The translations under genes and the position numbers were made by a program. Shown in pieces: positions 17,108-50,339 of a stretch of DNA of 64,000 nt. The stretch is from Branchiostoma floridae (taxonomy: Eukaryota). The stretch is from positions 3,002,707-3,066,706 of the forward strand of contig NC_136205.1 in NCBI RefSeq assembly GCF_015852565.1, read 5' to 3'. A model generated the notes under the pieces. That model was not told the DNA's origin and ran no database searches. It saw only the letters and a program-made list of their open reading frames with translations. Positions within the stretch are counted from its first letter, which is position 1. Each line of letters starts with the position of its first letter.

Positions 17108-17171
17108 ATGGGCCCTACAGGAAGTTCCATGATGCCACAGCGTCCTTCCAACATGCACAGCATCCAGCAAG
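17108..17171 (+). CDS. NCOA: NCOA homolog exon 15 (MGPTGSSMMPQRPSNMHSIQQ)
   Basis: A 64 nt exon between acceptor caaacAG and donor GTGAGA. Phase 0-in and 1-out, which is required by its neighbours. Confidence 0.6.
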
Positions 17172-26464: not shown

Positions 26465-26900
26465 TAGCCTCACTAGGGCTGGGTACTGGTACAGAAAATT
26501 CAGGTCCAGGTCCGGTTCAGGTCCAAAGGATCAGGTCCAGGTCCGGACCTGAACTTGGACCTGATGCAGTATGACTCATACCAATGGTCCATATCACTAC
26601 AAAGAAATCTGTTTGGTGGAGTATTAGACTTACACTGGCGTTTTAAAATCCTACAACGCTAACTGCACCTGTACAATTGGCTGTAAAACTTGGTAGAAAT
26701 TACTATAAACTCTACACTACTTCGCTCTTGTTATTTTCTTCCACCTGCAAGTGCCAAAACGTGTGAATGCCTGATAAAATAATCTGTTAATTTTCTAATC
26801 GGTCCAACATCCGGTCAACCTAATTTTTTCAGGTCCGGTTTTTCTGGACCGGTCCAATAAGAAAAACCGGTTTTGTACCGGTAAGCCCTAAGCCTCACCG
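26465..26900 (+). mobile_element. MITE (~435 bp) with TIR CTAGGGCTGGGTAC.GGTAC and an internal palindrome GGTCCAGGTCCGGTTCAGGTCC...GGACCTGAACTTGGACC. This is copy 1 of 3.
   Basis: Near-identical copies at 31067-31500 (inverted) and 33637-34075. Confidence 0.8.
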
Positions 26901-29029: not shown

Positions 29030-29132
29030 ATGGATGGTAAAGAGAAATACAAGATGGTGCGGAGATGTTTCTCGGTTGGATCCATCACGAAGATCTTGCT
29101 CTGTTTTACTTTCTTGGTGATTTCAAGAAGAG
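29030..29132 (+). CDS. EGF-kringle membrane protein, exon 1 (MDGKEKYKMVRRCFSVGSITKILLCFTFLVISRR), candidate signal peptide
   Basis: ATG in Kozak context with a hydrophobic core, then donor G|GTGAGT at 29133. The exit phase (1) matches the entry phase of exon 2 at 34273. Confidence 0.5.
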
Positions 29133-31066
29133 GTGAGTAGATTTTATTTGTTATCGCTTTTAAGATTTGACCATGAGAATGCAGTAGACTACTTGCGTCA
29201 CGTTTAGCGCCTTGTTACGTACGTCGTACGATAGTCGCACGATCACAAATTGGTGACGTTCTTGGGATAAACGTGTACGTGCTGTGGGAAATTCAAATGC
29301 CTTGTTACGAGAAAGGTTGTCTTTAGTTAGATCATAGGACATAAAACCTGCTCTTCAAAAGATGTATTCAGTGCCACTGACGAAAGATAGTTGCTGCTAC
29401 CCTAAACGTCTGACCGCCTACAAAAACTATATACAGTTAAGTAATTGCTATTTGGCATATCTTATCACCTGTATGTCTTGCACCAACGTTGTCTTATATC
29501 CCTATATCCTTGTCTTCGGCTGGTTCTGTCACAGCCAGCTTGAAAAGTCTACGACATCAACATCATACGACATGCGAATATGGCAGCGCCGTTGATTTAA
29601 AGGCATACATGATAAGAGATATCACAGAAGCGGTGCAAAGTGTTGTATTTATCTATTATGTGGTGCTTGCATGTCCATGAAAAAGATTGTTAACGTCTTT
29701 GTGCTTCCTTGTAAAAATGTAACGGGAATGGTAGTGGCAAGCGTACACAAAATTGTTCCGAAGAATCAAAGCAATGACCGTACTGATAGTGGAATGTTTT
29801 AAGAATATGCTTATACTACTCCATTTGCTTGTTTTAGCCGACATAGAGTTGCGGGCCTAAAATCCTGACACATTCAGTTTACATTGACCTAAAAATTTGA
29901 CAACCATGGTATGTCAGTTAACATGAAGACGGATTACCCGTTGTTATTTGTCACAGTTTGACAGGCATGGCAGCCACGTATTCAATCAGACGTCACGAAG
30001 TCGACATCAAAAAGGCCAGCCATATAGAAAATATCCTTTTCATGATTTTAGACCTGATTGGGCGGATCTTTTTAAAGTTTTTTAAGGTTTGTATATCTTT
30101 AGTACGTCTGACTTGATTACATTGATTTTTTAAAAACCAATTGAAGTATCAATTTTGACTGTAGGTTTTGTTTTCCTAGGATTGTTCCTAAGAAAAAGAC
30201 AAATGTATAGAGTGAACATGATATGATATGATACACACAAACATACATTAAAAAACGAAGGTATCAAACGCTTGTACAAATTTCCTCCCAGATTCCATTG
30301 GACGTCGGTAAAGATGAAACGAATTCCTAGCGGTGCATCAGGGTCTCTGCACACAATGGTTAAGGCAATCTTGGTGGGGCGAATTTGTACAAAAAGGAAG
30401 TACAGTACATATACCATTACATTGAATACAGTATTCATGAGCTTTTTCCGGACTGTGAGACATGAACTTAAAACCAGACCATGAGAGGCGTTGTACATGC
30501 TAGCTGCCAAGATGTTACCGACCTTAAATACCCAAAATGTCCCGTTAACGTTTGACGCTTTTTTCAATGTTTTTGTTTTCATCTCAATGACTTGTATCCT
30601 CGAAGCATAATGACTATGCAACAATCTAGACTTAAAAGAAAGGTTCCATTTGACCTCCTGATATTTTTATTTATCAAGGGGATTGTGAACAAGAAAGATT
30701 TATTGCTTTCTTTTACGGCAAGATAAGAAGAGTATAATCCAAACGTAATCCTCTTCATCTACAGGAAAGTGTCCTCATGTGTTTACAAAACGCGCCATTT
30801 TGTTTACTGGAATGTGAGCATCAAAGTACATAAGTACTTCAATGATTCAGTCGTTACACGTTTTACCATTGGTTACTAGCAATGGCAAAGTCATCATTTG
30901 CAAAAAAAAATGATTGTGGCTGCCTTGACGTCTCAATACCAATAAGCGAATTACTTGCAAAGTGTATACATGTAATGTTGTGTACAAATGTGGTGGCATG
31001 CATATGCAGAACAAGGTGGCATATCTGAAAGTAATGTTGCAGCCCGTTCTGTGTCCTTAATGTGTG

Positions 31067-31500
31067 GCTATTAGGGCTGGGTATCGGTACAGCGTACCGG
31101 TACAAAACCGGTTTTTCTTATTGGACCGGTCCAGAAAAACCTTACCTGAAAAAATTAGGTGGACCGGATGTTGGACCGATTAGAAAATTAACAGATTATT
31201 TTATCAGGCATTCACACGTTTTGGCGCTTGCAGGTGGAAGAAAATAACAAGAGTGAAGTAGAATGGAGTTTATAGTAATTTCTACCAAGTTTTACAGTCA
31301 ATCGTACAGATGCAGTTAGCGTTGTAGGGTTTTAAAACGCCAGTGTAAGTCTAATACTCCACCAAACAGATGTCTTTGTAGTGAAATGGACCATTGGCAT
31401 GAGTCATACTGAATCAGGTCCGGGTTCAGGTCCGAACCTGGACCTGATCCTTTGGACCTGAACCGGACCTGGACCTGAATTTTCTGTACCGGTACCCACC
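31067..31500 (-). mobile_element. MITE copy 2 (inverted orientation), flanked by a (GTTT)n microsatellite at 31570-31600
   Basis: Reverse complement of 26465-26900 and 33637-34075. Confidence 0.8.
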
Positions 31501-32559
31501 CCTAGTGGCTATAGTCATTTTAAGAATGTAGATTCTGAAGTAATTTTTCACCTAGTTCAAGGCGTAGGTATTGTTTTCGTTCTTTTGTTTGTTTGTTTGT
31601 TTGTTTGAAGTGATATGTGTTGAACATTGTTTCTGCTGGCCCGGCTCCAAGTTTGTTCCCGGGATGAGTTGTAACCAGAGACTAACAGGATGCGAAGACT
31701 GATCTGGCCTACTTCAGAATGTCTTAAGAAGGCAGGAAGTGAACACATGGCCAAAAGTTGGGAACCCGAGGAGGGCATGTACCCGAGAGTGTAGAATGAA
31801 ATGTGTAAATTAAACGAGGTTGTGCAATATTTTTCAAGAAATTAACAAAATCTTTCTGCTATTCATTTGTGTGTGATGTGTACAAAAAAAGTGGAATAGA
31901 GGGTGATCACCCGAAAGTAAGTCGTTGTAATCAGATCTGTGTTCTTAACGTGTGGCTACTGTCATTTGAACACTTTAGGCATGATTTGTTGATTTGCGGA
32001 GTGGTGTACAGGGTCCTTCATTTTCTGGTACTCTCTTTACCTCAATGGCTTTCATGACTCATCGATGGACCCTCAGACGGGGTCTTGTTTATGTGTTGCC
32101 ATAGCAACGGCGCCATAAGGGAGCCAGGCATAAGAGTGCTTCCTGTCACCCTAAGAAATTATAATACTGATTAATGTATATATTTTCCTGCTTTTTTGGT
32201 ACTTCCTTATAATCATCGCTCTTTGCGGCAACATGAATGATTTCCAAAACCATATCCAGTTGCTTGTCAATGAGTAACTACTATTTGTCGTAAAAGCTAT
32301 AGATGCCCAACGTTCATCGACGTATGAAAAAATTCTCTTTTCTCCACTAGCTGGAAACAAGACTCATCTTTTGATAAGTCTAGAAGTATTTTTAAATGAA
32401 GACCTATGGTCAAGTATATATATGACTCCAGTTTATTGTATGTATTTTTTAATATGTGAATATTAGGGAAAGCTATATTTCTTGCCGGTTTACAAAAGAC
32501 TTATAATAGATTACGAAGATTTCCTCCTGACCCTTATAGAAAGTCTTTGGTCGTTGACA

Positions 32560-33050
32560 AATGTCCTAAAATATCTAAGTCTTCAAATCTATGTTCAGAA
32601 CTGTTACTAAAACTACCACAGCCCACTAACGAGGAAAGGATTATCTAGTATCGAAAAGAAGCATCGGACTTACAAATCCCCAGTCATGTTCAAAACAAAT
32701 CCTTTAGAAATATCATTACGAAACTAAGAATTAGTGCCCACTCCCTACAAATCGAAAAGGGTAGACATCACAACACACCAGCCAATGAGAGACTGTGTCC
32801 AACATGCCATGATAATATTGAAAATGAATCCCACTTTATAATGGATTGTCCAACTTATGACAGAGAGAGACAAAAAATGTTACAGTCTATTAAATGCAAA
32901 TCTGATACTATGTTACCACCTACCAAGACAGAAATGTTCAATATGTTACTATCATGTCCTGCTGATATATCTGCCTATGTCGGTCAATTTATATATAACT
33001 CATTTAAAAAACATGACAATATTATATACCAGCACATAATGATAGCCTGA
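32560..33050 (+). mobile_element. 3'-terminal fragment of a non-LTR retrotransposon ORF2 (C-terminal CCHC motif: ...IITKLRISAHSLQIEKGRHHNTPANERLCPTCHDNIENESHFIMDCPTYDRERQ...)
   Basis: The conceptual translation matches the conserved LINE ORF2 C-terminal Cys/His motif. It sits inside intron 1 of the EGF-kringle gene. Confidence 0.6.
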
Positions 33051-33636
33051 TTGTAAATATTATATACCATGTGTAAAATAGATTAGTCTCTTAGATTTTT
33101 AGATACTAGTAATTCATGTAGTGTTCTGTTCTGTATGTATTGTATGTACAAGTTGCCAAACACTGTATCCTCTACAGTTGTGCAATAAAGTTCTTCTTCT
33201 TCTTCTGTTCATTGTACGACCGTAGTACAATCACAATCTCGGGTCATTGTTATGATAGTCTTGCAGACATATGTCATATAGCAAACTTCAGCTGTCTTGT
33301 TAAGGACTCTGTCTTGTCTTCCTTGTCGGCGGTTGATTTTGTCACTGCTTGAAAAATTCCATTATAGCAAAATTGTAAAACGGCTATAGCTAATGACGAA
33401 TTTGACCGCGAATAGAGTCTTGACCCTTAGTTTTGATCTCTCCCTCCTCAGACCCTGCCCTGACCGTTGTGAACCAGAGCCCGCTGATGAAAATATTATA
33501 CGGCATAATTATGTACTATTGTGTGTAAGTAGCTTGATAAAAGGCTACGAGGAAAATATTTTGTATTTTTGTGAAAATATTGCCTTTCTAGTATTGGCTT
33601 TTTTTAGAAATAGATACCTGACCATTAGTCTTAACT

Positions 33637-34075
33637 AGGGGTGGGTACACCGGTACAGAAAATTCAGGTCCAGGTCCGGTTCAGGTCCAGATGATCAGGT
33701 CCAGGTCCGGACCTGAACCTGGACCTGATTCAGTATGACTCATACCAATGGTCCATTTCACTACAAAGAAATCTGTTTGGTGGAGTATTAGACTTACACT
33801 CAGCGTTTTCAAACCCTACAACGCTACCTGCACCTGTACGATTGGCTTTAAAACTTGGTAGAAATTACTATAAATTCTACTCTACTTCACCCTTGTTATT
33901 TTCTTCCACCTGCAAGCGCCAAAACGTGTGAATGCCTGTTAAAATAATCTGTTAATGTTCTAATCGGTCCAACATCCGGTCCACCTAATTTTTTCAGGTC
34001 CGGTTTTTCTGGACCGGTCCAATAAGAAAAATCGGTTTTGTACCGGTACGCTGTACCGATACCCAGCCCTAGTCT
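33637..34075 (+). mobile_element. MITE copy 3, followed by a (CAAA)n microsatellite at 34196-34250, immediately upstream of EGF-kringle gene exon 2
   Basis: Same family. The MITE plus spacer plus microsatellite unit is an inverted duplicate of 31067-31600. Confidence 0.8.
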
Positions 34076-34272
34076 TAACCATGCCCTCCCCAGACCCTGT
34101 CGTGGCGCGTTGTATTTCATCTGACCCTTAGCTTCCTCATGACCTCAATAAGAAAACGGTCTTCATGCCAATTAGAGATTCTCATGAATGAATAAAGGTT
34201 CAAACAAACAAACAAACAAACAAACAAACAAACAAACAAACAAACAAACAATCTTGACCTTGCCCTCCCCAG

Positions 34273-34399
34273 ACCCTGCCCTGGCGCTGACCGTGGTGAA
34301 CCAGAGCCCGCTGATGGACCCCATCAACACGTCATACATCAAGTGTGTCACGGATGAGCCGGGCGAGTTCGTCACCTTCTCGGCTGTGGACGAGTTCGC
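34273..34399 (+). CDS. EGF-kringle membrane protein, exon 2 (DPALALTVVNQSPLMDPINTSYIKCVTDEPGEFVTFSAVDEFA)
   Basis: Acceptor ctccccAG and donor GC|GTGAGT. Phase consistent on both sides. Confidence 0.65.
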
Positions 34400-34807
34400 G
34401 TGAGTTTTGTCTAATTTTCTTCAATGTTGTGGTACATCTCGTGATGGTTTCAAGCCACACACTGTTTGTTTTGCTATTACTATGATTGTTGCCAATGTGT
34501 GTCGGCGCTCTTTTGAATACGATAATCTCATTAAAACCGGTTTTTCAAGGTCTCAATGGCAACATTTACTACTTTGTAGTGTCATAGAGAAAATTAATTT
34601 TCGCGGTTTTCACGACGATTGGAATTGGCTGACGGAAAAAAAATTCGAGCTGGCTAAAGCCCTGGTTTCATATTTAGGTCATTAAAAACATAACAAGCCC
34701 CCTCTAGCACTGCATCTCGTGAAGAAATGATGGTTTTGAAATGTACTTCCATCCCGGAGGCGTCGCCAAAAATAATAGCCTCCTCGTTCTTTTCCCGCCT
34801 TCAACAG

Positions 34808-34968
34808 ACTTCCCCAGAACGCCAGCACAGACGACATCAGCCCTGAGGAGTGGCCCGGGAAGATGATGGTCCTGCCGCCCCACCCTGACGACGGGTACAA
34901 CCGACTGGGCACGTACAACTGCGCCTCCTTCACGGCAAGCATCAACACTGTCAAGATGCCGGCCGATG
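34808..34968 (+). CDS. EGF-kringle membrane protein, exon 3 (LPQNASTDDISPEEWPGKMMVLPPHPDDGYNRLGTYNCASFTASINTVKMPADG), start of the Ig-like domain
   Basis: Acceptor cttcaacAG and donor G|GTACGT. Phase 2-in and 1-out. Confidence 0.7.
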
Positions 34969-35054
34969 GTACGTTCAATCTTCAGCAGAAATTTGACAAT
35001 AACGTTTACTTGATTACTACGTGGGGTAACCGGAAACATCCACATAACGTCTGG

Positions 35055-35110
35055 TGTGTGTGTGTGTTTGTGTGTGTGAGTGTGAGTGTGTGTCTGTGTG
35101 AGTTTGTGTA
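35055..35110. repeat. (GT)n/(GTGTGA)n microsatellite
   Basis: gtgtgtgtgtgtttgtgtgtgtgagtgtgagtgtgtgtctgtgtgag. Confidence 0.9.
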
Positions 35111-35503
35111 AATTACGAAAACTGCAATTACCTTCATGCATTTTCTAAATTAACCTGACAACAACCAGGTTTAACCATCCAATATGGCGGACGACAATTA
35201 TGTCATAATGATGTGGGTGCAAACACGTGTAGGTCTATGTTATATTAGATTGTAGACCTTCTAGATGGTAGCGTGTGTAGCCAAGTTGTTTGCGGCCCTG
35301 CCTCTGGAACTGGATACCGTGAGTTCAATTCCGGTGGGTGTTGATATAAAAGCTGTGGTCCACTGTTCATTGTGCTTGTGGAAAAGAGACAGGCTGTTTC
35401 GCCAATACAATGAATCTGTACATATTGTACATAGCGTATCTGTCACAATTATTCATCTTTACAGAAAATTGAACATAACGTTACTCTGTGATTATTTCTA
35501 CAG

Positions 35504-35598
35504 CTTCAGTGAGACCGGAAGTGTACACCAAGACGTTTAACGCTGGAGAGGAGATCGAACTCAAGATGAACGAGTTTTCTACCCCGTCAGGAGCATCG
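35504..35598 (+). CDS. EGF-kringle membrane protein, exon 4 (SVRPEVYTKTFNAGEEIELKMNEFSTPSGAS), Ig-like domain
   Basis: Acceptor tttctacAG and donor GTGAGT. Confidence 0.7.
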
Positions 35599-35993
35599 GT
35601 GAGTTACAGGCCTACTATATAACATTCTCCTTCCTGCAAGATACCTTGGGAATGCTATTCTATTCCGGGCTGAGGTTTCCACTTCTGTGGGCGTTGTCTC
35701 TAACCAACTGTCATTCAGAACGACAGTCGTCTATATGTTTTCTTTGGGTTAAAGCAATTCTTTGATTGGTTGACAGCTGGCAACGCCCTAAAAAGTGGAA
35801 ATCTCAGCCCAGTTTAGCAGGTCCTCCCCAAGATATATTGTATAGTCCGAAGGCGAGATTCTGCATAGGATAATGATCCATAATGTCTTTTGTTGCCAAT
35901 ATAAACAAGTAAACAGCTACAATTAAATGATACAACAACGTTGGACTGTACACACTAAAGAAAACCTTTTCAACTTTAATCTTTCTCCTTCAG

Positions 35994-36147
35994 TTATCCT
36001 GGGACTTTAATGGAGAACCACTGGTGAACGGTTTCGCCAGCAGCGAAGTCAACCTGCGATCAGCCACTTCTGCCGAGTCTGGAACCTACCACTGCTACCA
36101 CGAGGGGTACAAGGAGAAGGGTGCGCTAACCAGGGTCATCGTCAGAG
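35994..36147 (+). CDS. EGF-kringle membrane protein, exon 5 (LSWDFNGEPLVNGFASSEVNLRSATSAESGTYHCYHEGYKEKGALTRVIVR), Ig-like domain C-terminal half with the GTYHC motif
   Basis: Acceptor ctccttcAG and donor G|GTAAAT. Confidence 0.75.
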
Positions 36148-36514
36148 GTAAATTATACATTTTAGTTAAGATAACAGCCAATCCAATCAGTAGATAGAAA
36201 AATGATAGCTTTTTGGCGACGCCTCTGCTGCGGTGGCATTATAAGATCAAAATGATAAAAATTACGTCATTACGCCTAATAGCAATTACGCCAAGTAGCA
36301 ATTACTCAAGCTATTTGGACACTTCAAAATTTTAAAGTCATATCCAGTTGCTTGAGTAACTGCTATCTGGTATCTTATTACCTAGATAACCCTCATCGAC
36401 GTATTTGCATTGTTTTGATTACCAGAAAAGTTATTTATATTTCTTTCATTATTTATTGAAATTCTATTATAATTTGTTGGTCAAAGATACTTATACTTGT
36501 TGCTATTTTATCAG

Positions 36515-36646
36515 ACTGTGCGGCTGGAAAGTGGGGTCCTGGGTGTTTCCTGGACTGTAGCGAGTGTTACAACGGCGGCTGGTGTGACGACAAGACTGGC
36601 CAGTGCGTGTGTCCGCCTGGGTTCTACGGAGAAACTTGTGACATCG
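36515..36646 (+). CDS. EGF-kringle membrane protein, exon 6: Tie/MEGF (laminin)-type EGF 1 (DCAAGKWGPGCFLDCSECYNGGWCDDKTGQCVCPPGFYGETCDI)
   Basis: 8-Cys EGF signature. Acceptor ttttatcAG and donor G|GTAAGC. Confidence 0.85.
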
Positions 36647-37380
36647 GTAAGCTTTGACATCACGTGCTCTCAAAATGTAGTGATAGACATTTTAGCTAAC
36701 CCACGTAGTAGTAGTAGGTTCTTTTTTTTCAAGTTAAGTGAATTTGACTTGTTAACTACATGCGCAGCATAAAAGCCGTTTGCCTTATTTCCAACGGTGT
36801 CATAAGGTAGTATCACACGCTGGGAAATAAGTGTAGCCGGCATAAAATTTTTCATTATTCTCGTGCATAATGGACACTCATTGGCCGGCTACACTTTTAC
36901 TATCTTATGCCACCGGTAAATCCGCCTGGAGTTTTCCGTTTGTCTAATTCAGTGTATCTATCCGAATCACCCTGCACAAGTGGCATTGCTAAAGGGTCAA
37001 TGGGTACTAGTATAACTTGTTTTGGCCAATAGCTTTGGTTTTGTTTTGGACAATAACTTTTCTAATGGTGTTGTTCTACCATAGTGTACTATGTAAACAT
37101 GATTTACATTTGAGTGTCATTTGTATACGATGCTTAGGAGTTATTGAATCGGCATGTATAGTTAAACCAGAATTTCTAGTATAGTTGTACTTGTATTGAA
37201 TTGTTCTACCAGTCCATTCTGGTGACGCTGAAGAAGAGTGATGGATGTCACTCGAAACGTCCGAAAGTAAATATTCGGTTTTTAATCCAGTTCTAGAGAT
37301 TGAACTGTATTTGAATGTTGTTTAGCTGGATGTCTAACCTTCATAAAAGTAACCTGAAATGTTGTGTGATTTCTCGACAG

Positions 37381-37533
37381 CTTGCGGACCGGGCAGGTTT
37401 GGTTACGAGTGCCGGAAGGCCTGTGATGACATCACGGAGGACGTGACAGCCTGCATGGGGAAACTGTTCTGTGTGCCTGATCCGTTCGGCTGTGCCTGTA
37501 TTCCTGGGTTCACTGGAATAGGCTGTAACGAAC
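37381..37533 (+). CDS. EGF-kringle membrane protein, exon 7: Tie-type EGF 2 (ACGPGRFGYECRKACDDITEDVTACMGKLFCVPDPFGCACIPGFTGIGCNE)
   Basis: Acceptor tcgacAG and donor C|GTAAGT. Confidence 0.85.
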
Positions 37534-37981
37534 GTAAGTCCTGGTCACAGACCAGTGCCAATAGTTTTACCAGCTGTTTTAATGGCTAAATGATTGGCAG
37601 CTTTTTGATACTTCATCAATGCAATTTGATGATTGGTTGAAGTAAAAGAAATAGCTTGTATCATTTTCACGTAGGACGTCAAAATTTGCCAACTTTTCTC
37701 CACGAAAATTCAAATTGCAAAGCTTTAAACACTGTACGGAACAACTTGGTTTTCATCAGTCTTAACCTAAAGAATGATTATGGTGGACATGGCTGCAGAT
37801 GATGCTTATCTGGATGAGTAATCTTCATGAACTAAAAGCTTGCCTTCAGAAAGATTGACATTTCTTTAATTTCTTTTGTACATGTCTTTACTAATGAAAT
37901 CTTTGTACTTTTAGTCAGTTATTAGCTATACTCTATCACATTTACCCTTTAGCTTTATAATTATTTGTTATCACACATTAG

Positions 37982-38116
37982 CATGCCCAAGAGGTACCTA
38001 CGGCGCCAGTTGTACCCAGACCTGCCGCTGTAGACTGAACCTGCCCTGTGACGCCATCACAGGGGAATGTCCCAGTGGGTGCGCGGATGGATACATGGGA
38101 CCCTCGTGCCAAAAAG
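37982..38116 (+). CDS. EGF-kringle membrane protein, exon 8: Tie-type EGF 3 (PCPRGTYGASCTQTCRCRLNLPCDAITGECPSGCADGYMGPSCQK)
   Basis: Acceptor cacattAG and donor G|GTGACA. Confidence 0.8.
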
Positions 38117-38606
38117 GTGACAAAAACTATGCCGCTTACAAAAAAAAACATGAGAAGAAAATCAAAATATGTACACAGTAAGGGTTATCTTCTAGATTTA
38201 TCTATAGGATGGAATGTATTGAATTGTTTTGAACAAGCAGCAAGCAAGCCGTCCACCTTTTGAACAGCTTTGTGCGTTTATCTCTAAGCAGATCTTGTGG
38301 CATAAGATAGTGTCATAAGCTTGGGAAGGAATTTAACCGGCAAAGTGAGTTAATTGGCCATTGCGAAGCAAATCTTACGGTGGTATAAGATGGTTAGTAT
38401 CATCAGCTGGGGATGGAGTTAAGCAGATCTTCGCGGTGGCCAATTAACTCCCCTTTGTCGGGTAAGCTTCTTCCCCAGATTATGATACTATCTTTAATAT
38501 GCCACCACAAAATCTGCTTGGAGATTACGTTTATCATCACTCAGTCACTTACGGCCCATAACCACATCATGTCGTGACGTTGAAAATAATACCCCCTCCC
38601 CCCCAG

Positions 38607-38740
38607 CTTGCATGGTGGACAATGGTGTGACGTACCAAGGCCCAGTCTCCACCACAGAGAGCGGCTACACCTGCCAGAGGTGGGACTCCCAGAACCCCTG
38701 GCAACATGGCTTCAATGTCGACCGGACTCCAATGCTTCAA
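38607..38740 (+). CDS. EGF-kringle membrane protein, exon 9: kringle N-terminal half (ACMVDNGVTYQGPVSTTESGYTCQRWDSQNPWQHGFNVDRTPMLQ)
   Basis: Kringle consensus C..NG..YRG..S.T.SG..CQ.W.S..PH. Acceptor cccccAG and donor GTAAGT. Confidence 0.85.
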
Positions 38741-39159
38741 GTAAGTTAAATTTTTTTTTGCAACGCCTCAGGGACGGAGTCATCCTATAGATCATTGAGT
38801 CTCTAGTTTTGATTTTCTTCCATTTGGTTGCGTACCGCTATGCATTATTTGTACACGGTGAAATCCATTATTGAAATTAAATCGAAAGTTTCTTGCAAAT
38901 TCTTGCCCGTTAGCTAATTGAACGTAGCACGAAAGGGTACAGACAAGACAGTGTATTACAACATAGCCTGTCAATACTCTTGTCTAAAAGCTGACCGTAG
39001 ATTCAATGAAAGGTTAAAAGAACCAAAATCTTAATTACCTACATGAAGAAAATAGAAATCAGCTTTTAAGCATTACTTTACATCTTGGTACAAATGAATA
39101 GATGTATGATAAATAGGTACTTTTTGTAATACGTTCTGGTGTGGTTTTACATTTCATAG

Positions 39160-39256
39160 GAAAACTACTGCCGTAACCCTGACAACGAGCCACGCCCATG
39201 GTGCTACACGACCAGTTTCGCCAAACGATGGGAGTACTGTAACATCGACCGATGTG
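39160..39256 (+). CDS. EGF-kringle membrane protein, exon 10: kringle C-terminal half ([32 protein letters not shown])
   Basis: Canonical NYCRNPD....PWCYT....W..C.I..C. Acceptor tttcatAG and donor G|GTAAGA. Confidence 0.9.
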
Positions 39257-39726
39257 GTAAGAACTCATTTTTCTGTAAACACACAGTATATCTTGACATA
39301 CTGTCTATTCGTTGCAATCGGTGCAATGGCCGGATGAGTAGAGTGTCGTGAGTTTGATCCCGACCGTGTCATACCAAAGACTATAAAGAATTGGTACATG
39401 TAGCTCTCTCTTCTTATCACTCAAGTTGAACATGATTAGACTCTGTCAACCTTACGTGCATACGAACAGCACTTATATATCGCACATGTAATATTGTTGT
39501 CAGCTTCTATATTGAAAGTTTTATTCCTTCAAATGTTCAACTGTTTTTGAAGCTATTCTTTATTCGCTCATGACGTCATCTAACTTCCGACTTCCGGAAC
39601 GTCAGTGAATCAACATCTGATGAAGGTCGGCGAGATCGACTGAAAATTCACTGTGAGTGTCCCCCTTTTGTTGAAAGAAAGCTATTAAACTTTGTAACTT
39701 GATGTGTTTTTCTTTCATTTTTTCAG

Positions 39727-39852
39727 AGGACGTTGACAACTGCAGCCCAGAAACCTGTCAAAATGGCGGCAGCTGTCGGAACGGCTTTCAAACCTTCCTG
39801 TGTGTCTGTCCCAGGGGATACATCGGGGTCAACTGTGAGACAGGTCAGTATG
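39727..39852 (+). CDS. EGF-kringle membrane protein, exon 11: EGF (EDVDNCSPETCQNGGSCRNGFQTFLCVCPRGYIGVNCET)
   Basis: Acceptor ttttttcAG and donor G|GTCAGT. Confidence 0.85.
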
Positions 39853-39892
39853 ACGTAACGGAAGTGACGTCACAGTCATGACATCTGTAACA

Positions 39893-40275
39893 GACCTTTT
39901 TCACACTTCCCATAATACATTGCGACAGGGTTCCGGATATGGATGTTGACTGGGATGTACCACCCTTGCCCAGGGTGCGAAACCAGGGTGAAAACAGCTA
40001 AAACCTTCAGTACGAGGGCGGCAAAGCATATAAACTAATGATTTGTCTTGCAAATATAGTTACAGTGCACGGGACATGGTAAAAATCACTTTCTGACAAC
40101 AAAGAACAAAGGCTGCAGACGAAACGCAAGTCGTGACCCATGCTTTGCCGCCCTCGTACTGAAGGTTTTAGCTGGTTTCACCCTGGTTTCGCACCCTGAG
40201 CAAGGGTGGTACATCCCAGTCAGCATGCATATCCGGAACCCTGTCGCAATGTATTATGGGAAGTGTGAAAACGGT
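39893..40275. mobile_element. MITE/long inverted repeat (~180 bp arms) in an EGF-kringle gene intron
   Basis: 39893-40070 is the reverse complement of 40100-40275 (TTTTCACACTTCCCATAATACATTGCGACAGGGTTCCGGATATGGATG...). Confidence 0.75.
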
Positions 40276-40489
40276 CTACAGCAAACTATTTTAGAGGAAA
40301 TTTTATCCGGTTTTGAATCTTTCGAAGCTGTTCTCTTTTAGCATATTAAAATAATTGTCTCAGTCTTTTCCAAGTGCAGTCCGTTAGTACTAATGTCACG
40401 TGACTAATATTGGCCAATTATATACTAGTAGCTCGTTTTAACCATGTCTTCCAATAATGTTTATTCGTTTGTTTTCTTGTTTTGTTCAG

Positions 40490-40603
40490 ATATTGATGAA
40501 TGCGATTCGGACCCGTGTCAAAATGGCGGAACTTGTGTTGACAATGTGGGCTTCTATGAATGCCAGTGCTTGGAGGGATTCTATGGACAGAACTGTGAAG
40601 AAG
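40490..40603 (+). CDS. EGF-kringle membrane protein, exon 12: cbEGF (DIDECDSDPCQNGGTCVDNVGFYECQCLEGFYGQNCEE)
   Basis: D-I-D-E-C calcium-binding EGF signature. Acceptor ttgttcAG and donor G|GTTTGT. Confidence 0.85.
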
Positions 40604-41114
40604 GTTTGTAAAAAAAGCAAACATCAAACCCTTTTATCGCATGTAATTGTCATCGGATTAGAGTAAGGCATGAGAAGAAAGTACCATTCTTAAAAATATC
40701 ACACAAGGAAGATCCAAACTGATCAGAGTGACCACTTTTCTACATCTTTATTGTAGTGAATATTGCACATATGAAGCACTGAGGGCACATGTATCTTGAA
40801 TACTAGTATGAGAGTTGGTACAAAGTAAATTGATATCTGAAAACATATGAAGACCAACACATGTATTGGGGCGGTCACAAATTCTTCATAGGTCGTCGTA
40901 CGATTTGGATTTCGTAAATAAAACTGTGACATGATAAACTACCGAAAAGGATGTAAGGAAGTTTTTTTTTTTCGTAAGAAGACTTTTACTGTACTTTTGT
41001 AAGACATATGAACGGCCATCAACAGAAGGTCCTCAGTTCGATATCATAAGACGATCGTGCGACGAATGACGTAAGTCGTTGACCTTTAACCTGTTCATGT
41101 CCCTGTCTCCATAG

Positions 41115-41228
41115 AAACGAACGAATGCCTGTCTGAGCCGTGCGAGAATGGAGGCACGTGTCTGAACACGGACGAAGGGCTCAAGTGCGCATGCGTGGAC
41201 GGCTTTACTGGAACCTTTTGTGAAACAG
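41115..41228 (+). CDS. EGF-kringle membrane protein, exon 13: EGF (ETNECLSEPCENGGTCLNTDEGLKCACVDGFTGTFCET)
   Basis: Acceptor tctccatAG and donor G|GTGAGC. Confidence 0.85.
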
Positions 41229-41678
41229 GTGAGCGTATTTAGAATTTTTTTCCATTCTTTTTCACCAGCTTCAATGCCCAAGCACATTTGTCACTAGCGG
41301 CTGGATGGCAAACCTTGACCTACCAAACGTGACCTGGAAATGCAAATATGGTCAAATGCATTCATAAATAACTTAACTTCACATGTTTGTAATGAAAATG
41401 CAATTTCTTTGCCCCCTATTTAGCTGGTAAAAGATCAATGACAATAATTATTTGCAAGTTGCCTTACTGTCCGTGAAGCTTTGAAGAAGCCTGCGAAACA
41501 TAGCAAGATATATTCTGACCCAGCACAGTAGAAGAAGAATACAAAAGAAACACTACTTTTAACTTTGTGATTAAATACAGCTTTGCAATCAACTGCCCAA
41601 CCTACAATCAACTACCAACAACATAATTTTTGCATCCCTAAAGATATGCTGATGCGTTCTTTCAATCTTCTTATCCAG

Positions 41679-41798
41679 AAATCGACGAGTGTTTGTCCGA
41701 CCCTTGCATGAACGGGGGCACGTGTTACGACTTCATGAACTACTACGTCTGTGACTGTAGGTTTGGATTCGCTGGGGACCATTGCGAGGACGAGCTCG
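41679..41798 (+). CDS. EGF-kringle membrane protein, exon 14: cbEGF (EIDECLSDPCMNGGTCYDFMNYYVCDCRFGFAGDHCEDEL)
   Basis: Acceptor ttatccAG and donor G|GTAAGA. Confidence 0.85.
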
Positions 41799-41949
41799 GT
41801 AAGATTTGCATATCGAATTTGCATAAATGGGAATCGTTTTGTTGCATACATGATAATTTGACATTCTTTCCGTCGAAGGGTGTTGTCCCGAAAAACATTC
41901 CTGTATTCATTTGTCAAAGAATCAAAAGCACCGCGAATATTTTTCCATA

Positions 41950-42060
41950 ACAGTAAGAGACTACAGTGCATCGTGCTACCACGAAATTAAAACCACCGCG
42001 AAAAGTCCATTTTCCCGTTACCGCGAAATTAAATCCCCGCGAACTTAAATGCATTTACAG
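41950..42060. repeat. Dispersed repeat (...CCACCGCGAAAAGTCCATTTTCCCGTTACCGCGAAATTAAATCCCCGCGAACTTAAATGCATTTAC)
   Basis: A reverse-complement copy lies at 63840-63965 at the window end. Confidence 0.7.
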
Positions 42061-42340
42061 TACTTTGTAGAATACCATTGCCAGAATGCTGCCCATGAAG
42101 AATTCAATATTCCTTTGTCAGCATTTTATTTAAAAAGCATCATAAGCCTACAATAAATCTCTACCCCTAAGACGTTGTCAGAATTTTTCGTCTATTGCAG
42201 AAATAGACTACTGGCTAGAATACCATTGCCAGAATGCTGCCCATAAAGAATTCAATATTCCATGTCAGCATTTCTTTTAAAAAGTGAACCCTTAAGGCGT
42301 CACCAGAATTATGTATCTAAAAAAATATTTCGTATTTTGC
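42040..42340 (+). repeat. Tandem ~150 bp duplication in the intron upstream of exon 15. It carries two decayed copies of the exon-15 acceptor plus exon start (GCAGAAATAGACTACTGGCTAGAATACCATTGCCAGAATGCTGCCC...).
   Basis: Copies at about 42048-42130 and 42195-42275 resemble the authentic 42335-42400 (gcAGAAATAGACTACTGTCTGCAAAACCAGTGCCAGAACTCTGCCCGC). Confidence 0.75.
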
Positions 42341-42342
42341 AG

Positions 42343-42456
42343 AAATAGACTACTGTCTGCAAAACCAGTGCCAGAACTCTGCCCGCTGTGTCAGTGGTAA
42401 CAGGAGCTACATGTGCCTGTGTTCCATTGAATACACCGGCGACTACTGCGAGCAAA
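42343..42456 (+). CDS. EGF-kringle membrane protein, exon 15: EGF (EIDYCLQNQCQNSARCVSGNRSYMCLCSIEYTGDYCEQ)
   Basis: Acceptor tattttgcAG and donor A|GTAAGT. Confidence 0.8.
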
Positions 42457-42894
42457 GTAAGTCTTAATAAATCTGTTTTATTATTTTTTTTGCAGAAAAA
42501 TGGCTATGACGTGTGGTTTCATGATTTTACATGCAATTACAGCTTTATGAGTGTACCCACATTAGTGCAAAAATGCAAAGTTATACGCCAAGATCCCCTT
42601 GTGATACGACTTTTTGATCTACTGTATGGGGACATTTTTCAGTTTTGAAGTTGCAGTATTCTCTCTATTGTGGCAGCTTTACAATACCTCAAACCAATTT
42701 TCAGATCGGAAAGGAAAAACATACGCCGCGAAATACACCTCGCTATTGTAAGCTTGGCTGTAGTTTTGATTCCGGATGTTTGGATTTAGTATCAGTGTGG
42801 ATGTTTTGTTGATAAATTCTTGAATAAGGTGCTTCATTAAGTTTCTAAAAGTAGGCTCAGGGTATGCTCTATGTTTCCTTTAACTGTACTGTAG

Positions 42895-43110
42895 TGGCGA
42901 TAGTGTGGAGTAATTGGTAGCGCATTCGAATCGGTGCAAAAGGTTCCGAGTTCGATACCCCCCATGCCCACACGTTGTGCTCTAGGGAAAGGCACTTTAC
43001 ACGACTTTCCCTGACGGTGGAGTGATGCCCACCGAGCCTCTACTCACTATGGATTTGGTGCGTCAAGGTGCCAACATCTGCTTGTTGGACTCCCTCCGAG
43101 AGCCGTTAAA
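42895..43110. mobile_element. tRNA-derived SINE copy (GGTTCCGAGTTCGATACCCC...GGCACTTTACACGACTTTCCCTGACGGTGGAGTGATG...)
   Basis: Same family as the copies at 3285 and 53690. Sits in an intron of the EGF-kringle gene. Confidence 0.65.
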
Positions 43111-43306
43111 TCTATTAATTTTTATTACTGTACTGTAGTATTTATCTCATCTCATGTTAAATTTAAGCTTATTATCGTGTATTGTTTTATCACATTTTGT
43201 TTCATATCGTTTACTTCCCTTTATTTCAAGATTTAGTTTAGTACAATTCTTCCGTTATTCTGTATTGTTTTATCACATTTTATTTTTTTTTCGTTTCATT
43301 TGAAGA

Positions 43307-43529
43307 TTTGGCGGACTTTGAAAAAATTCCAACCGCCAACATAATCGCAGCTGCCATCGCGTCCATAGTTGTGATCGCCGCGATCGCGCTGGGGGCGTAC
43401 CTGTACATCAAGTCGTACGAGGCACAGCGCGTCATCCCTCTAAAGAAGAAAGACACGCCGTTGGTTAACGCAGAGGAAGGGAAAGAGGCGAAAAAGAAGG
43501 GGTCACATCTTTCAGAAAGCACGGTGTGA
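43307..43529 (+). CDS. EGF-kringle membrane protein, terminal exon: juxtamembrane segment, TM helix (IIAAAIASIVVIAAIALGAYLYI) and a 45-aa basic cytoplasmic tail ending in a stop
   Basis: Acceptor tcatttgaAG. A 23-residue hydrophobic helix followed by KSYEAQR...KKKGSHLSESTV*. There is no kinase or other cytoplasmic domain. Confidence 0.8.
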
Positions 43530-45583: not shown

Positions 45584-46422
45584 TCACATATATACCAGTT
45601 GGCGTGGAAAGATGGTCACAGTACGGAGCTGTACGTTCGCCACCACCAACTGTCCGTCCGGCCCCATGGCAACACCAGCTGGGTTGGTAATGTTCGCGAG
45701 GGTGCGGACAAAATCCCCACGGCTTGTATACATGTCAACCGCCTCTGGTTGCAATTTCGTCACAATGATGCGACCCAAAGTGTCCAAGCAAATACCTCGT
45801 GGAATACCCGACCGTCCTTCTAGTCCAAGTGTCCTGAATGTGACTAGCCTTGCCCCGTAGCGGTTGTAGACCTGGATTTTATTCGCGGTCGATACCAAGA
45901 TGTTTCCCTCGCTGTCTGTGGTTACATATGACACGGGGAACTTTCGTCTCTCCTCAAATTTCAGATGAAGCGAGCCGTTCGACTGGTAGATCAGAACTCC
46001 ACGCATGCTGGTCACGATGACTTTGTGGTCAGTCACGCCAACTGCAATGCCAGGATTCACGGACACGAAGTTGACGTCAAACGTGAACAGAGGCTGCCCA
46101 TTGCGTCTGTACTGCACCACATGTGCTTTAACATTAATATTCTTCCTCTTCCCCACTACCCACAAATGCCCCTCTCCGTCCACGGCGACATCGCTTGGTT
46201 GCATTTTCTTCACCGCGACCCCAGGGACGATTGTTCGGAAGAAGCGGCGATAGGCTCCGCTTATGTTGTAGACATGGACCCTTCTCTTCTGGAAATCAGT
46301 CACGAAGATCTCGTTGTCAGCAGAGACAGCCACTCCACGGTGACTTCGAATTTGGTTTAGTGAGCCTCCTCCCGTCCCAACCGGGACAACCATCAGTGTT
46401 CGGTCATTAATGTCATGGGAAC
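45584..46422 (-). CDS. NPxY/NHL gene copy A, NHL-repeat beta-propeller exon (six NHL repeats, ...FVTDFQKRRVHVYN...GHLWVVGKR...VIVTSM...GNILVST...RIIVT...GQLVVAN...). Terminal exon.
   Basis: Acceptor tttcactgcAG at 46424-23 (phase 1). 269+ aa are open to the stop. NHL signatures match the TRIM-NHL/teneurin-type propeller. Confidence 0.8.
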
Positions 46423-47995
46423 CTGCAGTGAAAGGAAGAGGATGCGATCAATGATAACCTGGCCCTGGTACGAACGTTCGAACAAAGCCTGTTACAGTTA
46501 GCAAAACTAAGAAAATTTTTTCATTCGGGCAACCAGCACGACCGGATGATGATGAAAGAAATCTTAGTAATTCCCAGGAAAGAAATAATGGCTTTTTTAT
46601 GTAAACTATGCAAGTTAGGTCCGCATTTGCATATCCTGTGTCTGTTTATGTTTATGTTTATCTGCCAGAACTTACACATGTTGCATGTATAAAAGTCCTT
46701 TAGTGGGGAAAATAATAGATGGGATAATTTCCTAAATGATTATCCAAATTTATTTTTGTGTACCTCTCCCTAAGCTACTTACGTGCCAAATATTATGGAA
46801 ATTTGTTCAATTATCTCTGCATTTGCATATACTGTGTTAAACCTGCCAGAAATTACACGTTACATGTATCTAAGTCCTTCACTATGGAAAATAATAGATG
46901 AGAGGATGTCCTGATTAATCATTCAAATTTATTTGTCAGCATCTCTTCATCAGCTACCTGGGTTCCTTTGTCACCTTTTGTTCAAGTATCTCCTTGGAAA
47001 GAATAAAAACGCCCCAGCGGTTCCAGAGCAAGCTCCAGAGGTGCCCGAACCTACACTTCTTATTATATATTGACAAAAACTATCTTCCACTAAAAATCAA
47101 GACCAAAGCATGTCCAAGACAAAAGATTACCATGTGACGTGCTTGAGATTGACGACAGCGTTGGCGTTGTTATCCCAAAGGGACCACTGGCAGTCGTGAC
47201 CTAGTAAGAGAATACGAATGGTCTAATAAACGTGTGATCTAGTCAGTGTGTTTGTTTGTTTGTTTGTCTTTCTGTGCGTTCGAAGTTTTGCCGATATTCT
47301 AGCAGCATGAAAGGGGGCATGGAAGAGTTGCAGCATGGAAGGGGGAAGTGGTGTAATAGGATACTTGCAGAATTGAAAATATGGATAGGCTGCAAAACCA
47401 TGTAGCACATTACATTGTTTTGTTTGTTAAGAGACCAGATTCTGGTCTTCAGTAGCTTCAGATAGATCGTTTCCGTTAAGGGTATGAAAAAGTGATCTGT
47501 AGAAATATGAAATACGTGATCTATAACCAATAGGAAGCGTGACAAGCATTCTCTCCCACCGTTAAGTCCTCAGGGGCCTCTGACGTCATTGTCGTCCTGC
47601 CAGAAGGACAACAGATGGGGCGATCCGGGGTATGGATCGGTCTTGATTTCTGCTGTCGATGGGAGACATTGTCATAAAGTCATTGAGTCACACACTAAAG
47701 TGGTCATCTCATGAGACTGCGCCAAATTGCGCGAGGAAATTACGTAAAATGTAAAAAAAAAATCCTTTGTGGTTATACGAACGTGCGACGCAATTTCGTA
47801 TGAAGCCCATATAAGAAGATTATTGAAAAGATATTATTAAATGTATAAACTGCCCTGTTTCACGCCGCTTGCGCCTATTTTGCGAACATTTAGCAAAGGA
47901 AACTATCAGATGAAAGAGTTGGAAGAATACCAGCTGCAGGCTAGAAGTAAGAAGAGAAAGCCAAAAACAGACGGTACACGAGATCGAGAGGGTAC

Positions 47996-48120
47996 CATTG
48001 GAGCATTCGGCGTGCTGTTGTTGATGAATGCAAACTTTAAACTTCCACCGATGACCAATGACAACAGGGTAACAGCTGTACATGCGAAGACAGCAACGTA
48101 CTCCCACCGCAATTTCAAAA
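47996..48120 (-). CDS. NPxY/NHL gene copy A, candidate TM exon (VLKLRWEYVAVFACTAVTLLSLVIGGSLKFAFINNSTPNAPM)
   Basis: Acceptor cctttacAG and donor ATG|GTACCC. Phase 1-in, but phase 0-out, which does not match the NHL exon (needs 1). Usage is uncertain and possibly isoform-specific. Confidence 0.45.
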
Positions 48121-48516
48121 CTGTAAAGGCATATTTTAGGACACCGTAATACCGTCCAAAGGAAAAAATCATGATAATAGAAGTAGCATTCTTAGTGTTA
48201 GTAAACACTAAGAAAAAGGCCGCATATATGAACATTTTCTGTAAAACAGATTACGTTCTAGCTTAATGAGCAGAAAACCAACCATTGAAACTTGAAAATG
48301 ATGTTTTGAAGTGATGTTTTACTTGTAGAATTCTGTCAGTTTGTTTGATCAAACCAAAGGCACCGTGCGAGAATAGGATAAGATATGTTACATGTTACAT
48401 AGGATGCTACATTTACGTCAGGTGGAAACAAAAGTGAGTCCATTCATTTGAAAAATAAGATCGCTACCCATTACTTGAAGCCTAAGCCATGACAAGGTCA
48501 CAAAAGACAATCTTAC

Positions 48517-49732: not shown

Positions 49733-50339
49733 AAAGTCAACGATGTTGTAAAAAATGCCTTAACGCGCTACTCCCTTACAGAAAGCAAGTCACAAGCGAT
49801 CACAAATGAACCTTTATATGGATTAACGAATTTCAATGCCTTCTTGGTAATAATGTTCTGATGGGTATAAAGAACATTACTATCTATTTCTGATTTCGAA
49901 ATTGTAGGGATTCTTTTGGTTAGATTCCTGCCATACATATTTGCGACAATAATGGTCATTCTAAAGTTTCACAAAACCCTTTAAAATTCCTTCAACAATA
50001 AATGCTATTATATTTTGAAATTCTAATTCGTTCTTACAGCTTTTCTATTCCGTAACATCGCCATAGCCTATAGAATGTGGCCTTTTTGCAAATTTGCGCT
50101 ATTCCTCTCAGACATATACAGTATACGCATATTACATTGTCTATGAAAAATGTTAACATTCTTTTCAGCCAAACATTACAAGATCTATCAGCATAAAACT
50201 TAGTCACAATGAAAACAGTCAGACAATTAGGATTCTCTTTAGATCTTTCATGCAACCAATTAAAGAAAAAAAAAATTAACTATTTTTTCTCTTCCAGTAC
50301 AATCATTCCTCGTCCAATTTTTTCACGAAAAAATCAATT

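Follow-up and report, generated by a model that had tools for sequence, protein, structure and literature searches.

A Branchiostoma gene joining a Tie-type head to a kringle and Notch-type EGF repeats: a candidate non-catalytic membrane receptor

A window of 64,000 nucleotides from the amphioxus Branchiostoma floridae (contig NC_136205.1, positions 3,002,707 to 3,066,706 of the forward strand; coordinates below count from the first letter of the window) carries on its + strand a gene whose predicted protein joins a Tie-type head (two immunoglobulin-like (Ig) domains and three EGFs) to one kringle, five Notch-type EGFs, a transmembrane helix and a short cytoplasmic tail. Judged by sequence and modelled fold, the outer head is a true homologue of the ligand-binding region Ig1-Ig2-EGF1-3 of Tie2, and comparison of the domain content indicates that the protein, although bearing a true Tie head, is placed outside the Tie kinase family. 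Our best explanation of the whole, held with confidence slightly above even, is a type I membrane protein of Tie head, kringle and EGF repeats that would serve as a non-catalytic receptor or co-receptor. A RefSeq prediction of the gene already exists, and its automatic names (“fibropellin-1-like”, “NOTCH2”) derive only from the EGF repeats.

The gene model was rebuilt independently, from open-frame segments and splice sites keeping the frame, on the + strand over 29030-43529. It has 16 exons and a coding sequence of 2094 nt that specifies 697 residues plus stop, with zero internal stops; all introns are GT...AG and the phases agree throughout. Its parts are:

Exon 1, 29030-29132 (+): start codon and signal peptide of ~34 residues (MDGKEKYKMVRR and a hydrophobic core); donor GTGAGT, exit in phase 1.
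Exons 2-3, 34273-34399 and 34808-34968 (+): Ig-like domain 1, residues 35-131, with Cys59-Cys115, equivalent to Tie2 Ig1.
Exons 4-5, 35504-35598 and 35994-36147 (+): Ig-like domain 2, residues 131-213, with the strand FNGEPLVN, equivalent to Tie2 Ig2.
Exons 6-8, 36515-36646, 37381-37533 and 37982-38116 (+): three eight-cysteine Tie-type EGFs, one per exon, all phase 1-1.
Exons 9-10, 38607-38740 and 39160-39256 (+): complete six-cysteine kringle, residues 354-431, phases 1-0-1.
Exons 11-15, 39727-39843, 40490-40603, 41115-41228, 41679-41798 and 42343-42456 (+): five Notch-type EGFs, one per exon, phase 1-1.
Exon 16, 43306-43529 (+): juxtamembrane linker, transmembrane helix at about residues 634-658, tail, and stop codon at 43527-43529.

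Hydrophobic windows begin at residue 13 (exon 1) and residue 631 (exon 16); the signal peptide is the only one and stands at the N-terminus, the transmembrane helix is likewise single and stands at the C-terminus, and no further one lies between. A preliminary description of this DNA had proposed 16 exons with consistent phases and GT-AG at every junction, which the independent rebuild reproduced with agreeing exon coordinates. Its three eight-cysteine EGFs in the N-terminal half also stand, but the single Ig-like domain placed before them proved to be two (exons 2-3 and exons 4-5); similarly the transmembrane helix and the lysine-rich tail were retained, while the tail shrinks from 45 to ~39 residues beyond the hydrophobic stretch.

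Against the human Tie2 construct 2gy5_A, residues 35-354 gave one continuous alignment to residues 2-320 (phmmer E=1.1e-41, the alignment spanning head-query residues 4-319 in a comparison with chains of solved structures). Identity of the head to Tie2 is about 28-30%, and the Tie2 structures matched by its sequence (2GY5, 4K0V and 9LV4) cover Ig1, Ig2 and all three EGFs, whereas the next matches (an EGF protein, SCARF1 and Notch) were confined to the EGFs at E-values of 1e-6 or weaker (9e-6 for SCARF1). The Pfam scan of the 697-residue protein reported no Ig domain; in the EGF1-3 region it reported EGF_2 and EGF_laminin. An AlphaFold2 model built on 21 head sequences reached a predicted local distance difference test score (pLDDT) of 85-95 across the first 320 residues. 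When this model was searched with Foldseek, the top three matches were the Tie2 entries 2GY5, 4K0V and 9LV4 (E 3.4e-26 to 1.9e-20; 3.4e-26 for 2GY5 and 8.9e-26 for 4K0V, with a template-modelling score of 0.62 and a root-mean-square deviation of 3.8 Å over ~335 columns), while the remaining matches had E-values of 1e-7 or weaker and template-modelling scores of 0.20 or less; the first of these had an E-value of 1e-7 and a score of 0.17. As the training data of AlphaFold included Tie2, the fold match is only partly independent of the known structure, whereas the sequence match is fully so. The head had earlier been likened to a “Tie or MEGF ectodomain”: the Tie half of that statement holds (E=1.1e-41 and a Tie2 fold), while the MEGF half does not (EGF-only matches, E about 1e-5). 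Membership of the MEGF or SCARF families was rejected, as the similarity is limited to EGFs and lies 35 orders of magnitude below that to Tie2.

One cysteine of the head has no partner. Cys196 (exon 5, 35994-36147) is the F-strand cysteine of Ig2 (YHC), of which the B-strand partner is absent, and it is left unpaired in the head because the three EGFs take 24 cysteines and Ig1 takes two. It is invariant in orthologues and common in paralogues, and could be buried and free or form an intermolecular bond.

Behind EGF3, on the other hand, nothing of a Tie kinase was encountered. Pfam found no Ig, FN3, kinase, DSL, MNNL, LNR, NOD, ankyrin, laminin-G or avidin domain in the protein (E<=0.1). The 64-kb window was also searched by tblastn with the kinase, FN3, Ig3, protein tyrosine phosphatase and SAM parts of six relatives (lamprey, sea-urchin and acorn-worm Tie receptor tyrosine kinases, an amphioxus SAM-kinase, a sea-cucumber receptor phosphatase and a SAM protein), each query being everything C-terminal of the head, and only EGF cross-matches were returned. 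Specifically, i) no Tie Ig3 follows EGF3, and tblastn with the lamprey Tie Ig3 gave no match in the window; ii) FN3 repeats gave neither an fn3 match in Pfam nor a tblastn match with the FN3 regions of the six relatives; iii) the stop codon at 43527-43529 follows the tail directly, and no kinase-coding sequence occurs in the 64 kb. The earlier statement that the protein has “no catalytic domain” is therefore borne out by the stop in exon 16 and by the lack of kinase or phosphatase exons in the window (tblastn). Because Ig3, FN3 repeats and kinase were each looked for and not found, the protein falls outside the Tie kinase family. Paralogous copies of the gene were likewise looked for in the window and none was found.

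In the place of Ig3 stands the kringle, which the preliminary description had correctly split over two exons (9 and 10). It spans residues 355-430, matches Pfam PF00051 over profile positions 1-79 of 79 (85.2 bits, cut-off 34.3), and has cysteines at 355, 376, 402, 413, 425 and 430, which in a kringle would pair 1-6, 2-4 and 3-5. It begins two residues beyond the last cysteine of EGF3, where Ig3 of Tie2 would begin, and may be called a structural replacement of Ig3 in the positional sense only. Its best PDB matches are kringle 2 of plasminogen and kringle 2 of HGF (E about 1e-22 per domain), and the kringles of ROR1 and ROR2 are detectable homologues (E about 1e-16). Identity is 95-96% among Branchiostoma orthologues and 60-65% to fish plasminogen kringles. 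The kringle carries the motifs NPDNE (with a D-x-E like that of kringle 2 (K2)), PWCY and RWEYC, and its D406-N-E408, W412, Y414, R421, W422 and Y424 align with the motifs of plasminogen K2 and K4; from established kringle structures we take NPD-x-E, PWCY and RWEYC to line the lysine-binding pocket. A word-indexed search with the 90-residue kringle returned 14 short proteins and no nearer kringle or donor gene, and it missed the parent protein too.

The way in which the kringle was gained can be read from a B. belcheri paralogue, XP_019636960.1, which has the head, about ten EGFs and a transmembrane helix but no kringle, and which lies on the scaffold of the orthologue, about 52 kb downstream in the opposite orientation. 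Its exons were obtained by exact spliced mapping and compare with those of the window gene as follows:

Signal peptide exon: paralogue 55 nt; window gene 103 nt.
Ig1 exons: paralogue 288 nt (1-1); window gene 127+161 = 288 nt (additional phase-2 intron).
Ig2 exons: paralogue 116+127 nt (1-0-1); window gene 95+154 nt (1-0-1).
EGF1 exon: paralogue 132 nt; window gene 132 nt.
EGF2 exon: paralogue 153 nt; window gene 153 nt.
EGF3 exon: paralogue 138 nt; window gene 135 nt.
Kringle exons: paralogue none; window gene 134+97 = 231 nt (1-0-1).
After the kringle position: Notch-type EGF exons in both, all 1-1.

Between EGF3 and the first Notch-type EGF exon the paralogue has one phase-1 intron, exactly at the site of the kringle pair. 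A symmetric 1-1 cassette within a phase-1 intron is what exon shuffling classically leaves behind; we therefore attribute the kringle to that process, and the protein fits the earlier label “exon-shuffled”. As amphioxus is known for abundant domain shuffling (e.g., PMC2575513 and PMC4284660), such a protein is not very surprising.

The structure is shared across the genus. The best database match was XP_035660179.1 “fibropellin-1-like” [Branchiostoma floridae], full length at ~99.7% identity, with two substitutions (G175S and T280A) in the alignment; the copy (P0125) from the assembly of a hybrid, B. floridae x B. japonicum, is identical to the window protein over the alignment, both sites included. 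The window exons are 97-100% identical to the reference B. floridae locus; thus the haplotype of the window differs slightly from the reference. A look-up of the exact window protein among assembled contigs found no record. Predicted orthologues of 696-697 residues occur in B. belcheri and B. lanceolatum (90-93% identity). The B. belcheri locus has 16 exons of equal sizes (exon 16 is 3 nt shorter) with GT-AG at every junction, its spliced product equals XP_019636959.1 exactly, and its exon 1 also has 103 nt and a GT donor, at 84% nucleotide identity. Since this orthologous locus keeps both the 16-exon structure and the exact product, the observation is not due to chance. An NCOA-type bHLH-PAS coactivator gene is the upstream neighbour in both the B. 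floridae window and B. belcheri, and local synteny is therefore conserved. Orthologues turned up only in Branchiostoma, in agreement with the previous view of a lineage-specific protein that corresponds to no named vertebrate one, and searches of open-access papers returned none on this gene or on a kinase-less Tie-like or Tie-kringle protein.

The ratio of non-synonymous to synonymous substitution rates (dN/dS; Nei-Gojobori, window versus B. belcheri, dS 0.71) was 0.075 for the whole gene. By region it was 0.058 for the signal-peptide exon, 0.070 for Ig1, 0.154 for Ig2 (the least constrained domain), 0.050 for EGF1-3, 0.030 for the kringle (the lowest of the gene), 0.089 for EGF4-8 and 0.079 for the transmembrane helix plus tail. 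Strong purifying selection has thus acted on every domain since the species of Branchiostoma diverged. Such low values in every part make a strong case for one functional gene and also back the linkage of exon 1, which is further supported by cross-species conservation and independent gene models. An annotation artefact, by which a Tie-head gene and a kringle/EGF gene were merged or exon 1 was misplaced, might be suspected from the length of intron 1 (5.1 kb) with its transposon insertions, and from fused-looking models that occur in the family (e.g., P0170, 1910 residues). Several lines of evidence make it highly improbable: i) there is a single signal peptide and a single transmembrane helix, each at its proper end, and the phases all fit; ii) models of 696-697 residues exist in B. 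floridae, B. belcheri and B. lanceolatum, with the 16 exons verified in B. belcheri; iii) every part including exon 1 has a dN/dS below 0.16; iv) the layout of the paralogue is the same minus the kringle.

With the gene taken as a single unit, the stalk behind the kringle consists of EGF4-8, each with six cysteines; Pfam reports five EGF stretches in the protein. The preliminary count of five EGFs, one per phase 1-1 exon and three of them with [DE]x[DN]EC, was seen again in the rebuilt model: this motif is in EGF5, 6 and 7, while Cx[DN]xxxx[FY]xC is in EGF4, 5 and 7, and Pfam EGF_CA (PF07645) reached 21 bits against a cut-off of 27 bits. The O-glucose consensus (C-x-S-x-P-C) is present in EGF5-7 and the O-fucose consensus (C-x4-[ST]-C) in EGF4-7; these O-glycosylation motifs, together with [DE]x[DN]EC, mark EGF4-8 as Notch-type.

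Such features raise the question of a non-canonical ligand or modulator of the Notch pathway, acting through O-glycosylatable EGFs as DNER or DLK1 do. The automatic names “NOTCH2”, “fibropellin-1-like” and “delta-like” point that way, EGF5-7 carry both O-glycosylation consensuses, and EGF4-8 score highest against the EGFs of Notch, Delta, Jagged and Crumbs. However, Pfam found no DSL, MNNL, LNR, NOD or ankyrin domain, the similarity amounts to five generic EGFs of a kind found in hundreds of unrelated proteins, and Tie head and kringle together account for half of the ectodomain; we thus consider a Notch-pathway role very unlikely.

Membership of the named families was examined separately. Notch or Delta membership was rejected because LNR, ankyrin, MNNL and DSL domains were all missing in the Pfam scan. 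Fibropellin is a secreted protein in which EGF repeats are followed by a C-terminal avidin-like domain; membership was rejected here because Pfam found no avidin-like domain and the protein ends in a transmembrane helix and cytoplasmic tail. The automatic names are misnomers, being based on EGF repeats only.

The cytoplasmic tail of ~39 residues is lysine-rich and ends in -SESTV. The last four residues, -ESTV, do not vary among the five other orthogroup sequences in the comparison (from three species), and no paralogue examined has them; at the motif level they fit the class I PDZ-ligand pattern x-[ST]-x-[VIL]-COOH.

With a profile of the head, a search of 1.84 billion representative proteins gave 5056 matches at E<=0.001 and 426 at E<=1e-30; the relatives examined were the best 150 of at least 426, and the counts that follow include the query and three paralogues added to the local scan. 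Among 152 sequences examined, 33 had the full head, 76 had Ig2 and EGFs, and 43 had EGFs only. Within the best 150 of at least 426 relatives, the combination of head and kringle is confined to the window's protein; weak kringles were seen in a MEGF10-like protein of a snail, which has no Ig pair. Motif and probe scans of the 152 sequences found a tyrosine-phosphatase signature in 18, a kinase in 11 and a fibrinogen-related domain (FReD) in six, and Pfam in a sample of 38 found FN3 (24), tyrosine phosphatase (seven), tyrosine kinase (six), SAM (four), PAN (three) and fibrinogen-C (two). Named exemplars (n=20) include the “angiopoietin-1 receptor-like” kinases of sea urchins, a starfish and an acorn worm, echinoderm “receptor-type tyrosine-protein phosphatase” proteins, several Branchiostoma Tie-like kinases, a lamprey Tie and a centipede receptor. 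Lineage-specific duplications of the Tie kinase subfamily have been described in amphioxus and Ciona (PMC7249569).

Besides the kinases there is a kinase-less set with head, EGFs, transmembrane helix and short tail, which counts six or more paralogue groups in Branchiostoma, with Ciona and Styela contributing one protein each. Examples are XP_019636960.1, XP_019640566.1 and XP_019641537.1 (B. belcheri), XP_035696713.1 (B. floridae), XP_078485810.1 (Ciona) and XP_077972532.1 (Styela), all predictions that go by names such as MEGF6-like, Tie-1-like, SREC2-like, delta-like D or fibropellin-like. By its domain layout the window gene belongs to this undescribed set of kinase-less Tie-head/EGF/transmembrane proteins of invertebrate chordates.

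Two further groups of relatives were observed in passing. In sea urchins, a starfish and a sea cucumber (P0134, P0143, P0223 and P0238) a Tie-type head, or its Ig2 and EGF part, is carried by receptor-type tyrosine phosphatases, the enzymatic opposite of Tie kinases. In Branchiostoma, the models P0169, P0170 and P0179 combine a Tie-type head with one or two fibrinogen-related domains, a kind of domain found in the ligands of Tie2 itself, and P0170 adds Ig, FN3, SAM and kinase in 1910 residues; such models may be fused. If they are real, receptor head and ligand-type domain would stand in one chain.

How such a protein might work is suggested by its architecture. It would sit in the plasma membrane with the Tie head outermost and act as a non-catalytic cell-surface receptor or co-receptor. 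In the case of Tie2, it is the tip of Ig2 to which angiopoietins bind with their FReD, via the strand F161-E169, in which F161 and P166 are dominant (PMC8294587). The segment at this position reads SWDFNGEPLVNGF in the window protein, and the FNGEPLVN strand of Ig2 is invariant among orthologues; angiopoietin-like genes are present in amphioxus (PMC5237311). The Ig2 tip would accordingly be the candidate site for a secreted ligand, most plausibly a fibrinogen-related (angiopoietin-like) protein, and by analogy with Tie2 we regard FReD-type binding there as plausible, not as established. The kringle probably gives a second contact, with matrix or with the ligand, which may be lysine-dependent. 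As the protein has no catalytic domain, its tail would signal only by recruiting other proteins: through PDZ scaffolds on -ESTV, through lateral association with Tie-head kinase or phosphatase paralogues, or both. Since relatives bear kinase, phosphatase, SAM or FReD parts, the genome also encodes catalytic partners that share this head. Tie1, for its part, associates laterally with Tie2.

Several points weigh against this proposal: i) the function is inferred; ii) phmmer pairs F167 and P171 with F161 and P166 of Tie2 with one residue fewer between them, and an alignment anchored on NG pairs neither; iii) Ig2, the presumed ligand-binding domain, is the least constrained one; iv) lysine binding by the kringle is possible at most, as it is read from similarity to other kringles; v) in the AlphaFold2 model the kringle has a pLDDT below 50 and its packing against the head is unresolved, because three sequences only cover it; vi) a four-residue PDZ-ligand motif can arise by chance, though this one is invariant in three species; vii) a neighbour-joining tree of the Ig2 and EGF region groups the kinase-less chordate proteins, but with a bootstrap of 0/100 for that clade (19% for the clade of Tie receptor tyrosine kinases, 100 replicates), and therefore leaves the closest paralogue and the immediate ancestry of the head undecided.

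Two other functions would use the same parts differently. In the first, the protein gives no output and competes with Tie-head kinases for ligand, as a dominant-negative sink and membrane-tethered equivalent of soluble Tie2. The head is indeed the same as in Tie receptor kinases with the catalytic domain absent, kinase-bearing Tie-head genes (for example that of XP_066294642.1) are present in Branchiostoma, and a shed Tie2 ectodomain acts as a ligand trap in vertebrates (PMC5473842). But the tail with -ESTV, needless for a pure decoy, is as constrained as the ectodomain (dN/dS 0.079), and the kringle and five EGFs are strongly constrained as well, which makes a mere sink unlikely. In the second, EGF stalk and kringle attach the cell to other cells or to matrix, and the Tie head is there to cluster the protein in cis, not to bind a soluble ligand. 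Putatively calcium-binding EGFs, a kringle and a PDZ-ligand tail are together typical of junctional or polarity proteins (e.g., Crumbs, which is among the EGF matches), and the comparatively low constraint on Ig2 would suit such a role. Against it stand the retention of the entire Tie head at a dN/dS of 0.05-0.15 and the invariance of FNGEPLVN at the position of the Tie2 ligand strand, and we judge an adhesion or matrix receptor to be improbable. The non-catalytic receptor or co-receptor thus remains our preferred explanation. In its most specific form, the receptor would couple a FReD ligand at the Tie head to a lysine-dependent contact at the kringle, such as one with a fibrin-like or matrix protein, and relay this by way of a PDZ scaffold or of a partner kinase or phosphatase with a Tie head; this is a speculative proposal with only a slim chance of being right in all its parts.

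If that specific form were true, it would physically connect the precursors of the Tie/angiopoietin and plasminogen-type systems, in an animal without endothelium, and the kinase-less Tie-head proteins would be a chordate receptor family lost by vertebrates. Tie/angiopoietin signalling is usually regarded as a vertebrate endothelial toolkit, and a comparative table gives the ancestral bilaterian Tie gene as “unknown” (PMC6389290). The relatives show the Tie ligand-binding head to be an old mobile module, whose partners in deuterostomes are kinases, tyrosine phosphatases, SAM domains, fibrinogen-related domains or nothing catalytic. The present gene is a well-preserved case in which the gain of a module is legible from the exons, useful for teaching and testing exon shuffling, and a concrete candidate on which to study the binding partners of Tie-type heads in animals lacking endothelium. 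The public names “fibropellin-1-like” and “NOTCH2” are misleading and unfit for comparative studies.

Mobile elements surround the first exon. A 422-nt element with terminal inverted repeats (TAGGG(C/G)TGGGTA(T/C)CGGTAC...), resembling a miniature inverted-repeat transposable element (MITE), occurs in three copies of ~95% identity:

26485-26886 (-): MITE-like copy upstream of the gene.
31072-31493 (+): MITE-like copy in intron 1.
33649-34071 (-): MITE-like copy in intron 1, inverted relative to the preceding one.

The two copies within intron 1 agree with the preliminary remark on MITEs in this 5.1-kb intron. None of the three is present at the reference B. floridae haplotype locus (L001), so that the element has been recently mobile and shows presence/absence polymorphism; intron 1 measures 5140 nt in the window and 4086 nt in the reference, a difference to which the MITE contributes. 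Between the copies in intron 1 lies a 133-residue open frame (32649-33047, +) with a CPTC...H...C zinc-knuckle-like tail, and elsewhere a 288-residue open frame (56589-57452, +); neither has a Pfam match, and both look like fragments of retroelement reading frames. A (CAAA)n microsatellite (34195-34255) stands immediately upstream of the exon 2 acceptor and forms a weak inverted pair with a G/T-rich run at 31558-31607. Elsewhere in the window, 45587-49759 (-) and 58290-62476 (+) are a head-to-head inverted gene duplication with copies very similar at the protein level; block 1 is an acidic exon of 425-438 residues with no Pfam match, and block 2, of ~290 residues, has NHL-repeat/beta-propeller similarity (PF01436, E about 2e-11). 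The upstream gene for a nuclear receptor coactivator of the NCOA/SRC type (bHLH-PAS) runs from about 1887 to 18579 (+); its reference product has 1912 residues, and its large exon (10938-12998) has a weak Nuc_rec_co-act match.

Compared with known systems, the protein shares with Tie2/TEK and Tie1 the whole-length homologous Ig1-Ig2-EGF1-3 head, its compact fold and the type I membrane topology, but its EGF3 is followed by a kringle, five Notch-type EGFs and a PDZ-ligand tail. The kinase-less amphioxus and tunicate proteins have the same head, EGFs, one transmembrane helix and a short tail, with EGF1 and EGF2 exons of 132 and 153 nt in phase 1-1; on the other hand, they are without a kringle or an -ESTV end, and their heads are just 35-41% identical to that of the window protein. 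MEGF10/11 and SCARF1/2 (SREC) resemble it in eight-cysteine EGFs of the EGF1-3 subtype and are without the Ig1-Ig2 pair. Fibropellin, Notch, Delta/Jagged and Crumbs have in common with it Notch-type EGFs with the N-terminal calcium-binding motif and O-glycosylation consensus, whereas their avidin-like, DSL/MNNL, LNR, ankyrin and laminin-G domains were not found by Pfam here.

For the kringle, two kinds of protein offer themselves for comparison. Plasminogen, HGF and apolipoprotein(a) share the six-cysteine kringle and K2-like motifs with the amphioxus protein, which differs in having one kringle, no PAN/apple domain and no protease, in the setting of a membrane receptor. ROR1 and ROR2 (also MuSK in some animals, and Kremen) likewise bear one kringle in the ectodomain of a type I membrane protein; unlike here, the ROR kringle is flanked by Ig and Frizzled-CRD domains and that of Kremen by WSC and CUB. 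Thus the setting resembles that of ROR and Kremen, while the amphioxus kringle itself is nearer to kringle 2 of plasminogen and of HGF than to that of ROR.

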